Shown here one piece after another: positions 21,140-63,314 of a stretch of 64,000 nt of DNA. The notes under the pieces were generated by a model. That model searched no databases, was not told where the DNA came from, and was given only the letters and a program-made list of their open reading frames with translations. The DNA lies in assembly GCA_050949565.1 (NCBI GenBank), contig JBMNFY010000001.1, positions 192,001 through 256,000 of the forward strand, written 5' to 3'. How positions within the stretch are numbered: the first letter of the stretch is position 1; every line of letters begins with the position of its first letter. Both the position numbers and the translations under genes were made by a program. The DNA is from Kiritimatiellia bacterium. Its GTDB lineage: Bacteria; Verrucomicrobiota; Kiritimatiellia; RFP12; UBA1067.

Positions 21140-21147
21140 TGGGCGCG

Positions 21148-21680
21148 CGGGTGCGATTCAACGTCGTTGAATGCGCACCCGAAGGAGAATTTAGGATTTA
21201 GGATTTAGGAGTTGTCCCTTGCCCCGCCTCGCAAGTCTGACGAAGAGATTTGGAGTGCGTGCGGCAAGCGGGTATTCCGCGCGACGCCGCTTTTTGGTTT
21301 TTCATCCACAGATGGGCACAGATTAACACAGATTTTTTGGGGAGGCACTGCTCGGTTTTTTGGAACCACAGAGAGCACAGAGAACACAGAGGTTTTTTGG
21401 GGGGCGTATGAACAACGAAACACAGTGCTGTGCCTTTTCGAGTATTTCGTGGTAGGAATTTTGGATTGTGGGCTTCACCCGCGCCAGTTTTTTGTCTAAC
21501 GTTCAACGCTCAATTTTCAAGTGGCGCGGCTCGCGAAGCGCCGGGAGGGTCAAGCGTCTGCTTGACCGGCCGCGCTGCGCGCGGCGAAAACTCCGTAAGT
21601 CTGGCAAATAAATCTGGTGCGCGCGGCAAGCGGGTTTCCGCGCGACGCCGCTTTTTGGTTTATCCGCAGATGGAAGATTG
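21148..21680. repeat. Mosaic repeat block (hairpin plus heptamers, two REP-A copies, 9-mer triplets, linker)
   Basis: 21148-21212 is the same module as 4267-4332; GCGGCAAGCGGGTATTCCGCGCGACGCCGCTTTTTG-type copies at 21261 and 21623 (third at 61872); CACAGAT and CACAGAG 9-mer triplets 21304-21392. Confidence 0.85.
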
Positions 21681-56315: not shown

Positions 56316-56711
56316 TCTCACAGAGGGCACAGAGTTTTTTTGGGGGGAAAAGCACAGTTGTTTCACGCGAAGGTGCGAAGACGCGAAGGTTGGAGGGCGA
56401 GTGTCCCCACGAGCCGCCTTCTGCTGTGCGGAAGGATGGTTTCAGGATCCATTGCTGAGCGCTGGGAGTCCCGGCGGCGTTTCACGCCGCCACACGGGCA
56501 AGATGCCCGTGCCACACAGTCCGGCGGCGCATGCACCGCCCACTTGAGCGTTGACAGTCCGGCGGCTCGTGGGGACACCCGCCCTCCAGTGCTGCGGTCG
56601 GGGCTCCCGGCAGCGGTCACGCCGCATCCATCAAAACCTCTGCGCCTCCGCGTCTCTGCGTTAAACAAACCCGAGCAATGCCCCCCAAAAAAACGCTGTG
56701 CCCTCTGCGTT
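56316..56711. repeat. Nested inverted-repeat stack between fic and tonB
   Basis: Three concentric inverted pairs around a REP-E core (see findings). Confidence 0.85.
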
Positions 56712-57660
56712 ACCGTTCGCGCAGGCGGAACACGAGAGTCAGGCGCGCGGTTGACTCCACAGGACGGCCGCCGCGCATGGCCGGAGTGAAACGCGCCTGG
56801 GCGGCGGCGCGCTCGGCGGCGCGGTCCAGCGCGGGGAAGCCGCTGGAAGTGACCAGCGTGACATCACTCGCGCGGCCGCTGGCGGCGACATTCACGTCCA
56901 GCACCACGGTGCCTTCCTCGCCGCGCTGCCGCGCGCCGAGCGGATAGACCGGACGGATCGCATGATCCAGCGAGGGTTGCGCATCGACACGTCCGGCGGC
57001 GCCGCCATCGCCGATCGCGCCGTCGCTAGCCACAGAAGGCGGAGGTGGCGGCGTGGGTTCGGGTTCCGCTGCGGGCGGCTGCGGGGCGGGCGGCTGCGGG
57101 GCGGGTTGCGGCTTGGGCGGCGCAGGTGGTGGCTCGGGCGGAGGTGGCGGCGGTTCCGGCGGTGGCTCCGGTTGCGGCTCGGGCGGCGGCGGTTCGGGTT
57201 CGGGTAGGGGTGTTGGCTCGACTTTCGGCTCGACTATCGGTTCAGGCTCCGGCTCGGGCTCGGGTTCGGGCTCGGGTTCGGGCATGGGCTCTGGTTCAGG
57301 TTCAGGCTCTGGCTCAGGCTCTGGCTCGGGTTCTGGTTCGGGCATGGGCTCTGGTTCAGGTTCAGGCTCTGGCTCAGGCTCTGGCTCGGGTTCTGGTTCG
57401 GGCATGGGCTCTGGTTCAGGCTCTGGCTCGGGTTCGGGGAGTGGCGGCACCTCTGGCTGGGCGGGCGCGGCGGGCGCTCCGGGTGTAGCCGCTTCGATCT
57501 CTGAGAGGGTCAGTTGGACTGAGGTGACCTGCAGTTCGGGCGCGGTGTCAGCGTATTCTTCGGCGCGCTGGATCGCGGCATGGCCCAGCAGTAGCATGCC
57601 CAGCAGGTGCAAGGCTACCGAGAGCGTGAAGCTGATGAGATGGTCATAAGAAAAGGTCAT
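56710..57660 (-). CDS. tonB: Energy transducer TonB with expanded (EP)n linker
   Basis: SVALH TM motif, EP repeats, [14 protein letters not shown]...[11 protein letters not shown]. Confidence 0.95.
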
Positions 57661-58097
57661 TCGTCTGGAGGGGCGGCGCGGCCGGCGGTCGGCGTACGGG
57701 CTTCGCCGCTGACCTGAAACGTAACCTGTTCCACGCCGCCATTCTTGAGTTTGCCGAGGAGCTCAATGCCGGTACCGAGTGTGGCGGCACGATCGGCGCT
57801 GATGAGCACCGGGACGGGGTTTTCGCGCCAGCGCGTGATCGTCGCGAGCACGAGGTCGTCGAACGACATCGGCTCTTTGTTCAGCGCCAACGTATCGTCG
57901 GCCGATAACGTGATGACGAGCTTCTCGCCCTTGAGCAGGGGACCGTCCGCTGACGGCAGGTCCACCTTGAGACCGCGGTGCACGGACATCGAGAAGACCG
58001 CGTAGACAAAGACCACGAGAATCAGGAACATGATATCCATCAGGGAAATCATCTCCATGCGGGCCTTGCGGTCCTCATACCCTGATTTCAGTCGCAT
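57657..58097 (-). CDS. exbD: Biopolymer transporter ExbD
   Basis: [20 protein letters not shown]; RBS AAGGAG. Confidence 0.92.
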
Positions 58098-58133
58098 GGT
58101 GTTCTCCTTGGGGCGCACGGCCCGGTGTCGCGG

Positions 58134-58850
58134 TCATTGCGGCGTCGCGTCGGATTTCGCGAGCCCGGTGTTGTAGGCCAGTTCAAAGCGGTGTGTCACC
58201 TGTTCGAGTTCCGTCGTGCGGCGCTTGATCTGCGACACAAAGAAGTTGAACGGGAAGAGGCAACAGATCGCCACCACCAAGCCTGCGGCGGTGGTGATGA
58301 GCGCCTCGGCGATACCGGCCGTGGCGCCGGTAGGGTTCTCTACGCCGGTGGCACTCAGCACGTTGAAGGTGTTGATGATGCCGGTGACTGTGCCGAGGAT
58401 GCCGAGCATCGGGGCTACGGTAATGGCGGTGTCAAGCACGGAGAAGCCACGGCGCAGGCGATCCAGTTCAAGTTGCGAGGCGGCCACAAGCGTCTCTTGG
58501 AAACCGGCTTCACGGTTTTCCAGCGCACTACCGAAGATACGGCAGATCGGCGAATCGGCCGCGCGTGCGACTGCGAGTGCCTCGTCGAAACGGCCGTCGC
58601 GTGTCAGGTCGAGAATCTCCTTTTGGCGGTTGCGGAAATAGAAGTTAGCGGCGTTGTATTTCCAGAAGGCGAAGAAGCGTTCGATGGCCACGGCTAGGGC
58701 GATGAGCGAGCAAATCAGGATCGGCCACATCACCGGGCCGCCACGGTCAAACATGACGAGGGCGGCGTCGAAGAGGCCTTGGGCGGCCTCGGGAGCATTC
58801 TGTGCGAGAAAAACCGAACCATGAAACACATGAAACTTCATAAAAACCAT
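58134..58850 (-). CDS. exbB: MotA/TolQ/ExbB proton channel protein
   Basis: GGPVMWPI, APMLGILGTVTGII, GIAEALITTAAGL; start uncertain (AAGGAAGG before 58850). Confidence 0.92.
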   Translation of the reverse strand: MVFMKFHVFHGSVFLAQNAPEAAQGLFDAALVMFDRGGPVMWPILICSLIALAVAIERFFAFWKYNAANFYFRNRQKEILDLTRDGRFDEALAVARAADSPICRIFGSALENREAGFQETLVAASQLELDRLRRGFSVLDTAITVAPMLGILGTVTGIINTFNVLSATGVENPTGATAGIAEALITTAAGLVVAICCLFPFNFFVSQIKRRTTELEQVTHRFELAYNTGLAKSDATPQ

Positions 58851-59021
58851 GCCTTCCTTTTCGTGTATTCCGTGTATTTCGTGGTAAAAAACCCGAGCAC
58901 TGCCTTCCAAAAAACCTTAGTGCCCTTTGTGCCTTCGTGTGAGGAAACAATCTGTTTTTTTATCGCGCCTGTTGAGCCGTAAGGTACTAACCCGTATAAA
59001 CGCGAAGCGCGCGCCGACGGT

Positions 59022-62948: not shown

Positions 62949-63314
62949 TAAGAGTGGAGACTACGAGTGTAAAGACTAAGAGTGGGGACAAAGTGTGTCT
63001 CCGCGCACAGCGCGGAAGGAAAGCGGTGCCGCGACCCGCGCACAGCGCGGCTCTTGTCACCGCATTCCAAATTTTTCCGCCGCGCCATGCGCGGCACAAC
63101 CTTCATGCGCCCGCGCAGCGCGAAATCATGGTCAATCATGTCCCAAAAACGCAACCCAACTCCCACCCAGAAACGCATTGTCTTCGCACACCCCTGTCAC
63201 TAACCGATTACGATTACTCTGTCGATTACTCTTGCCCGAGCGGTGCCGAAAAGACTAGAATGGAATCAATGGAGTTTAACCTGTGGCTAATCAGGCGACT
63301 GAAAGGAGGCGGAC

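Follow-up and report, generated by a model that had tools for sequence, protein, structure and literature searches.

Head-to-tail arrays of word modules on a shared head in a Kiritimatiellia bacterium and a few of its relatives

The window analysed here is a 64,000-nucleotide stretch (positions 192,001 to 256,000 of contig C1, JBMNFY010000001.1) of the 4.66-Mb assembly G000 of a Kiritimatiellia bacterium. It holds three arrays in which a conserved "linker" joins triplets of short words, each about 9 nt long. Instead of being a joint in its own right, the linker is better seen as a conserved head at the 5' end of a module, and the arrays as head-to-tail stacks of head+triplet units. The units have a recurrent anatomy, their words recur as the arms of GxxExxY gene cassettes, one such cassette carries a head-like leader, the head has a narrow distribution among genomes and the units turn over between close relatives. 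The explanation preferred here, at a probability of about 0.6, is a lineage-restricted family of gene-less half-cassettes, each made of the shared head and one of many word arms, which are stacked head to tail and shuffled via the head and the A-runs. The family resembles a so far undescribed kind of mosaic junk DNA, carried by a single narrow group of digester bacteria, and nothing found here points to a new machine.

Anatomy and abundance of the units

An earlier note on the window had placed three linkers at 21355-21333 (minus strand, CCGAGCAGTGCCTCCCCAAAAAA), 56671-56693 (CCGAGCAATGCCCCCCAAAAAAA) and 58893-58914 (CCGAGCACTGCCTTCCAAAAAA), and all three matched the sequence exactly. The periodic flanks that it described were also found: on both sides of each linker stand about three words of 8-10 nt, in one orientation and of different types. 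The flanks are of TCTGTG-type and then ATCTGTG..GGAT-type at locus 1, of TCTGCG-type and then a degenerate GCTGTG/TCTGCG pair at locus 2, the latter reaching the stop codon of the minus-strand open reading frame (ORF) 56710-57660, and of TTCGTGTA-type and then TTAGTG/TTTGTG/TTCGTG-type at locus 3. The first unit has a degenerate head at all three loci, which is frequent for the first units of arrays generally. Four matches to CCGAGCNNTGCC were present in the window compared to 0.42 expected, and none of 100 dinucleotide shuffles reached four.

The genome-wide pattern was CGAGCNNTGCC-N1-7-AAAAA, with overlapping A-run variants each counted and the reversed pattern as control. It gave 95 matches in G000 and the control gave 0. 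A looser regular expression gave 112 matches, about 10 of which were spurious by eye and 35 of which lie inside three tandem satellites on C17 and C15. After removal of identical contexts, 57 distinct contexts in 51 arrays were left. The satellites are built of head-containing multi-module units and are located at C17:119-1783, C17:453472-455392 and C15:26971-28840, with units of about 128, 120 and 623 nt in about 14, 17 and 4 copies, respectively. The contig pairs C12/C16, C14/C15 and C5/C18 share near-identical arrays and flanks, and the assembly may thus include two strain variants or regions present in duplicate.

An alignment of 97 junctions resulted in the following consensus: an A-rich tail, CC, [G/C]AGC, [A/C]N, TGCC, one to six pyrimidines, four to eight A (mode six), usually CC, and then the first word. 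Read on the pyrimidine-rich strand, a unit starts with the head (CC-[G/C]AGC-[A/C]N-TGCC, 1-6 pyrimidines and A5-7, as a rule followed by CC), continues with three words of about 9 nt as its body and closes with a short A-rich tail. All word-triplet units of one array share the same orientation, and the TTCATG-type module alone is usually inverted. The head was assigned to the downstream body because core, pyrimidine run, A-run and words change together in two orthologous slots. In both of these swaps the upstream sequence remains orthologous as far as the preceding A-run and CCC. Array ends were examined where an array had an internal core and two or more typed modules, which was the case for 31 arrays. 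No core follows the last module in 21 of them; the other 10 have a complete or degenerate trailing core and then another unit (2), another repeat body (3) or a degenerate right half (5), the repeat bodies being heptamer tracts, 8-mer words or the CCCCTGTCAC element. A split-core model, in which a unit ends inside the core as abutted transposon ends would, was not supported. The left half stands alone in 5 of the 31 arrays, and all five can be read as degenerate full cores. Classifiers of the upstream context were either too loose or too strict, and only individual examples and the downstream counts were used.

The distance from core to word ranges from 11 to 17 nt (standard deviation 1.8). As a sum it has a variance of 3.16, close to the total obtained by adding the variances of its parts. 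A fixed core-word spacing was therefore rejected, as there is no compensation between the runs and no constraint was seen. No clear pattern was found between the variable dinucleotide of the core and the upstream or downstream word type, except for the TTCGCG type with AG/TGCT. The core was also considered as a conserved start codon (GGC-ATG-GCT in the cassette sense), and this was rejected since a dinucleotide giving ATG is present in only 21 of the 97 cores. ORF 58779-58982 crosses array 3, and composition alone explains this open frame; protein-coding arrays were rejected, the combined length of pyrimidine run and A-run being 4-13 nt with no multiple-of-three rule. Folding of the six strands of the three arrays was no better than that of shuffles (z from -1.75 to +0.42), and in a search of the window with Rfam two tRNAs alone reached the gathering score, with no match to an array. 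A reading of the arrays as structured RNA or hairpins was rejected on these grounds.

Turnover of units between relatives

The joint was claimed to be constant and its modules exchangeable, and this is borne out by the junctions. From 72 typed junctions listed, nine were discarded by eye as spurious. With eight word types, 64 ordered pairings are possible, and about 30 occur in the 63 junctions retained. Turnover was followed in relatives with flanks 85-99% identical. Two slot swaps were observed: a slot on C6 holds ATCTGTG-type words in G002 and TCTGTG-type words in G000, and the slot at C17:612k holds TTCGTG-type words in G004 and TCTGTG-type words in G000. The same slot thus carries different word types in near-identical relatives, and therefore slippage, which the note had also dismissed, cannot be the cause. 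Chance resemblance or plain slippage of a simple repeat is judged refuted by this and by the excess of matches in the window and genome-wide, although word copy number and homopolymer lengths do vary in slippage-like steps in some arrays that are otherwise conserved (L097, L104).

Larger differences were also found. At C17:489.4k, G004 has exactly two extra units (115 nt), bounded by repeated CCTTCGTGTG, between flanks that are 98-99% identical, and whole arrays are replaced between flanks 94-99% identical (including L056). At locus 3 of the window (58815-58992), G001, G003, G005 and G006 have a module-free spacer of 64-73 nt with a GC hairpin compared to 179 nt in G000; the array of G002 is the same as in G000, and G004 carries different modules. 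The spacer of locus 1 is 25 nt without modules in G006 compared to about 540 nt in G000. About 3.2 kb is inserted in the spacer of locus 1 in G004 (L027, orthologous to about 21140-21420 of the window); the portion that was read finishes in an ORF whose C-terminus was PIN/VapC-like by eye only.

Array 3 reaches into a coding start. A 26-nt TTCATG-type module and a second AAAAACC form an in-frame insertion of 33 nt (11 codons; 58816-58848) directly after the first three codons of gene 58134-58850. The insertion is present in G000 and G002 and absent in G001, G003, G004, G005 and G006, where a single AAAAACC is followed by the start codon. It contains the sole clean single-module insertion (58816-58841), which is flanked by the 7-nt direct repeat AAAAACC; the head+triplet units have no terminal inverted repeats. 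The repeat is no proof of a target-site duplication, because microhomology copying would give the same. All indel and swap boundaries lie in repeated sequence, with breakpoints resolvable no finer than the repeat length.

Constant flanks, which the note had named as the sign of an ordinary miniature inverted-repeat transposable element (MITE), were found in one genome, G092, where a fixed composite repeat holds the head in 12 of the 13 loci read. This is not the case in G000, G002 and G004, where the flanks vary and turn over.

Word bodies and GxxExxY cassettes

The earlier note stated that such triplets flank GxxExxY genes, and in G000 this was confirmed. Seven PF13366 (GxxExxY) matches correspond to six genes, one of them split, and inverted word triplets bracket all six. 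None of the seven matches is located on contig C1, in agreement with the statement that the window has no such gene. The arms have the outer ends AACC... and ...GGTT, and their types include TTCATG, TTCCGTG and TCTGCG, all of which also occur in arrays. A TTCGTG-type GxxExxY cassette is present in the relative G004. Nine PF05635 (four-helix-bundle) genes above the cut-off in G000 are bracketed likewise by inverted tracts of 7-8 nt, according to our own reading of the flanks.

A TCTGCG-type cassette on G004:C197 consists of the left arm, T6, GGGGCATTGCTAAGG and about 20 nt of leader, followed by the gene start. In the cassette sense, this leader piece is the reverse complement of the head. In G000 the orthologous locus (C15) shows arm+GGCATTGCTACGG units repeated in tandem immediately upstream of the gene. 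On the 3' side of the same gene about 25 right-arm units, joined by a different linker, are found in G000 and two in G004. A gene-less element of hairpin type (inverted arm, CAGAGCCATGCC, forward arm) occurs in six places, in five of them with a full inverted arm, and its loop contains the core of the head. The unit is read as a gene-less half-cassette because its bodies are cassette arms and its head would correspond to the flank that an arm has on the side of the gene.

A 906-nt segment at G000:C11:78299-79205 (L146) encodes a MazE-like antitoxin (PF04014, 27.5 bits) and a PemK/MazF-like toxin (PF02452, 95.1 bits). It sits between two direct copies of the inverted TTCATG module, and the orthologous site in G002 is 77 nt. 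Judged from this segment, gene cassettes seem to come and go at TTCATG modules.

Distribution among genomes

The head pattern was searched in 161 genomes, 151 of them sampled from the same order, and it is frequent in only four: G000 (95 matches), G004 (46), G092 (36), which belongs to another genus of the same family, and G002 (13, in an assembly that is 56% complete). G128 has four matches. G001, G003, G005, G006, G009 and G016 have 0-1 matches. Counts in all remaining genomes sampled from the order are 0-2 and resemble those of the control. GxxExxY genes still occur in four same-genus genomes that lack the head, with 2-4 matches each. A scan of one genome per species gave 31 stretches with the exact pattern. 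Thirteen of these are in three records labelled Kiritimatiellia or Verrucomicrobia, and the remaining 18 are singletons in unrelated taxa, where about 17 would be expected by chance according to our own arithmetic.

Mechanism of exchange and alternative explanations

The bodies are word arms of the kind that, as inverted pairs, bracket the small GxxExxY (PD-(D/E)XK-like) nuclease genes. Gene-less units accumulate head to tail in intergenic DNA, often enclosed by other repeats and often capped by a hairpin tail ending in CTAA. The head (about 25-30 nt) and the A-runs may act as portable homology, because every unit has the same head and A-runs regardless of its words. Through recombination, gene conversion or microhomology-mediated copying, arrays would then come to duplicate, lose, swap or replace units. 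Since the indel and swap boundaries fall in repeated sequence, ordinary exchange driven by homology, or copying at microhomologies, is sufficient. We infer that homology drives the exchange. We also infer that the arrays have no function for the host and are either selfish or neutral.

The earlier note had instead proposed a dedicated recombination or insertion mechanism. This could not be upheld, as the spacing between head and word is loose, the motif could be tied to no enzyme, the four same-genus genomes that lack the linker have GxxExxY genes all the same and there is no replication-strand bias. On C17, 11 plus-strand and 10 minus-strand arrays were counted over 1.64 Mb with uniform GC skew, which argues against a lagging-strand, single-strand mechanism.

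Several observations weigh against the half-cassette explanation. TCTGTG, TTGGCG, ATCTGTG..GGAT and TTCGCG words have no cassette gene in G000, G002, G004 or G092, and the head-like leader was found in the TCTGCG-type cassette only and in none of the other five GxxExxY genes or nine four-helix-bundle genes of G000. The phase of the unit is not airtight: the TTCGCG-type body nearly always precedes one core variant, GAGCAGTGCT, whatever follows, and here the core seems to travel with the upstream body. Our reading is that the body forms a composite with a hairpin element, which begins with the same core. The core itself has conserved flanks around a variable dinucleotide, which is unpredicted by plain decay of a leader and would suit a recognition site. 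Orientation is biased as well. Between co-directional genes the purine-rich strand is the sense strand in 17 cases and the opposite in 5, and the same count by modules, which are not independent, is 97 to 62; both rest on crude gene calls based on the GC content of third codon positions, covering 77.5% of the genome, and hint at selection or function. Array differences that involve G002 and G004, both fragmented (330-340 contigs), could partly be assembly errors. Finally, the events are differences between relatives, and each can be read as either gain or loss.

The foremost alternative, considered unlikely, would have the units (about 55-75 nt) act as site-specific micro-cassettes, attached or cut at the head and crossing over at the variable dinucleotide. 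The units would be added, removed or swapped there by a word-reading GxxExxY nuclease plus repair or by a recombinase. An array would then resemble an integron, with binding sites instead of genes, and the genome would own a rapidly evolving stock of docking sites, organised like an integron, that serves several families of nuclease-gene cassettes. The single orientation, the constant joint and the free combination of types are in favor of this explanation, as are the conserved core flanks around the variable [A/C]N and the occurrence of strain differences as whole units. The head is also patchily present, in a sub-lineage of one genus and in a single species of a second, which looks like an active system spreading. 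However, the motif is linked to no enzyme, and the four same-genus genomes have GxxExxY genes with 0-1 pattern matches. The core-word distance varies without compensation, split cores are rare at array ends and most arrays have no core after the last module. In addition, all boundaries lie within repeats and are explained by homology, and the head sits in one fixed composite at nearly all loci read in G092.

Next in rank, and likewise unlikely, is a domesticated regulatory spacer, in which the head and the A/T-runs are kept for their effect on neighbouring genes, either as an outward leader or promoter derived from a cassette or as phased A-tracts that bend DNA. The orientation bias described above would fit and is unexplained by replication direction, given the even strand split on C17. 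In the cassette sense all three window arrays face the 5' end of the next gene, and one cassette has the head upstream of its gene. Contigs from RNA libraries traverse arrays 2 and 3 into the adjacent genes. The head of array 2 is spanned by X1 record 4 (56615-57144, no differences) and that of array 3 by X3 record 29 (57550-58936, one difference). These are Logan contigs, which support the assembled sequence and carry no word on starts, strand or expression level; parts that they do not cover are uninformative, and the libraries possibly contain DNA. The joints of such contigs at arrays have short sides (20-34 nt) and probably stem from other repeat copies. Against a regulatory role, relatives have orthologous spacers that work although they contain no module, close relatives differ by the replacement of whole arrays, and no sigma-70-like hexamer spacing was seen in the head, by eye only. 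Moreover, the bias is modest and its counts are not independent.

The tail that caps array 3 also caps at least 9 of the 31 arrays, and it is the right end of a MITE of about 200 nt with hairpins near both ends, which follows CTAA in seven of seven near-identical copies in G006. A 168-nt relative of this carrier, containing the head, is present in G004 where the G000 site is empty. A hairpin-ended carrier element explains the array caps. IS200/IS605-derived MITEs are termed PATEs. It is improbable, and less probable than a regulatory role, that the units as a whole are remnants of such non-autonomous elements, moved by a Y1 HUH transposase, with a joint that arises when an element inserts in tandem at its own target and a right end meets a left end. 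The caps and the filled and empty sites count for such remnants, as do seven PF01797 matches in G000, none of them on the contig of the window. The ends of IS200/IS605 elements have subterminal secondary structures, according to parts of PMC6006769, which also fits. The head+triplet units, however, have no hairpins, the heads are unsplit at array ends and replication-strand bias is absent. Transposon remnants account for the carrier element and not for the internal head+triplet units, and the two-unit difference at C17:489.4k lacks the ends of the carrier.

Comparison with described systems

The closest described systems are bacterial interspersed mosaic elements (BIMEs) and REPINs, compared here by description, and the present family differs from them in unit structure, orientation and associated gene family. 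The BIMEs of Escherichia coli have named linker motifs. Their building blocks, the repetitive extragenic palindromic (REP) units, are associated with RAYT (HUH) genes, whereas the words described here go with GxxExxY genes. As outlined in parts of PMC2817692, BIMEs are abundant, species-specific composite intergenic repeats with several short unit types, regular spacing and conserved linkers, which resembles the present arrays. REP units are palindromic and alternate in orientation in the same account, but the triplets found here are direct, non-folding and in one orientation. When the arrays were compared with REP/BIME features, a conserved linker was found, and stem-loop palindromes and alternating orientation were not.

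REPINs of Pseudomonas fluorescens, which go with RAYTs and also form tandem clusters, are described, in parts of PMC3116915 and PMC3337134, as non-autonomous repeats that presumably depend on a nuclease or transposase gene in single or low copy, with the repeats on both its sides. This is similar to the relation between words and GxxExxY genes, and a hairpin form (inverted arm, core, arm) exists here too. The arrays differ from REPINs in being direct stacks of half-elements with at least eight word types on one head, the gene is PD-(D/E)XK-like and not HUH, and mobility of a single unit would be an extrapolation. The cap element of array 3 is similar to the IS200/IS605-derived MITEs described in parts of PMC6006769, as it has hairpins near both ends, a fixed 4-nt context and a clean filled site versus an empty one. 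In contrast, the internal head+triplet units have no hairpins, and no transposase is tied to the cap element. The lack of terminal inverted repeats also separates the units from classical DDE-type MITEs. In integrons, exchangeable cassettes bounded by attC sites are arrayed in the same orientation with a conserved joint. The arrays share with them the uniform orientation of exchangeable units separated by a conserved joint. They differ in that the units are 55-75 nt and non-coding. Neither an integrase nor attI nor an imperfect palindrome of attC type was noticed, although no search aimed at an integrase beside the arrays was made.

Full-text searches of the literature, with supplementary files outside their scope, gave nothing on GxxExxY-linked repeats. 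Searches on PDDEXK_3 and related names gave nothing on mobility, and those on Kiritimatiellia repeats gave nothing relevant. GxxExxY proteins are a large orphan family, for which the arrays may serve as a compact natural experiment: at least eight word types stand on one head, and units are gained, lost or swapped between strains whose flanks reach 98-99% identity. Provided that the nuclease reads the words, the arrays indicate which DNA it should bind and where exchange happens. In this lineage, the arrays fill intergenic DNA, replace terminators and reach into coding starts, as the insertion at 58816-58848 illustrates. They also break short-read assemblies, which is relevant to the annotation and binning of these digester bacteria.

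Features of the window

The units and associated elements of the window are listed in Table 1.

Table 1. Array units and related elements in the window
Feature	Position	Strand	Remarks
Degenerate head, first unit of array 1	21391..21407	-	ACGCC-C4-A6-CC; left half CCGAGC absent
TCTGTG-type word triplet	21364..21390	-	three 9-nt words ending GGTT; type recurs genome-wide
Head ("linker") of second unit, array 1	21333..21355	-	core CCGAGCAGTGCC, pyrimidine run TCCCC, A6
ATCTGTG..GGAT-type word triplet	21303..21332	-	three 10-nt words; AAAAACC next at 21296-21302
Decayed hairpin-type element	21408..21453 (boundaries approximate)	-	inverted word arm, core-like CAGCACTG, forward word arm; fuller copy on C17
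TCTGCG-type word triplet (8-nt words) and A-rich tail AAACAAA	56639..56669	+	read from the sequence
Head of second unit, array 2	56670..56693	+	C-CCGAGCAATGCC-C4-A7
Degenerate module GCTGTGCCC, TCTGCGTTA, CCGTTCGCG	56695..56721	+	last part overlaps stop codon/3' end of ORF 56710-57660 (minus)
Inverted TTCATG-type word module (58816-58841) between two AAAAACC copies	58809..58848	+	in first codons of minus-strand gene 58134-58850
Truncated-head unit (ATGCCTTCC), TTCGTGTA/TTCCGTGTA-type triplet and A6 tail	58849..58892	+	sequence reading
Head of next unit, array 3	58893..58914	+	CCGAGCACTGCC-TTCC-A6
TTAGTG/TTTGTG/TTCGTG-type triplet and conserved array-capping tail	58915..58990	+	tail: AAACAA..T-run..hairpin..GAGCCGTAAGGTACTAA
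Fourth core match CCGAGCGGTGCC	63236..63247	+	adjoins GATTAC-word / CCCCTGTCACTAACCGATTAC repeat; no 9-mer triplet

At the counterpart of the ATCTGTG..GGAT-type triplet of array 1, the close relative G002 has one such word only, and about 300 nt including the head are missing. A GC hairpin element of about 35 nt (AAAAAGCGGCGTCGCGCGGAA..CCGCTTGCCGC) follows an ATCTG[C/T]GGAT word at 21265-21300 and at 21620-21660. G000 has these two copies and G002 has one, and the missing stretch of about 300 nt, linker included, is that between both copies. On the minus strand at 21205-21235, a TCCTAAA heptamer tract adjoins array 1; elsewhere in the genome such tracts are the inverted arms of PF05635 four-helix-bundle genes. 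At 63190-63260, CCCCTGTCACTAACCGATTAC followed by GATTAC-type words constitutes a separate repeat family, which also follows heads at several array ends.

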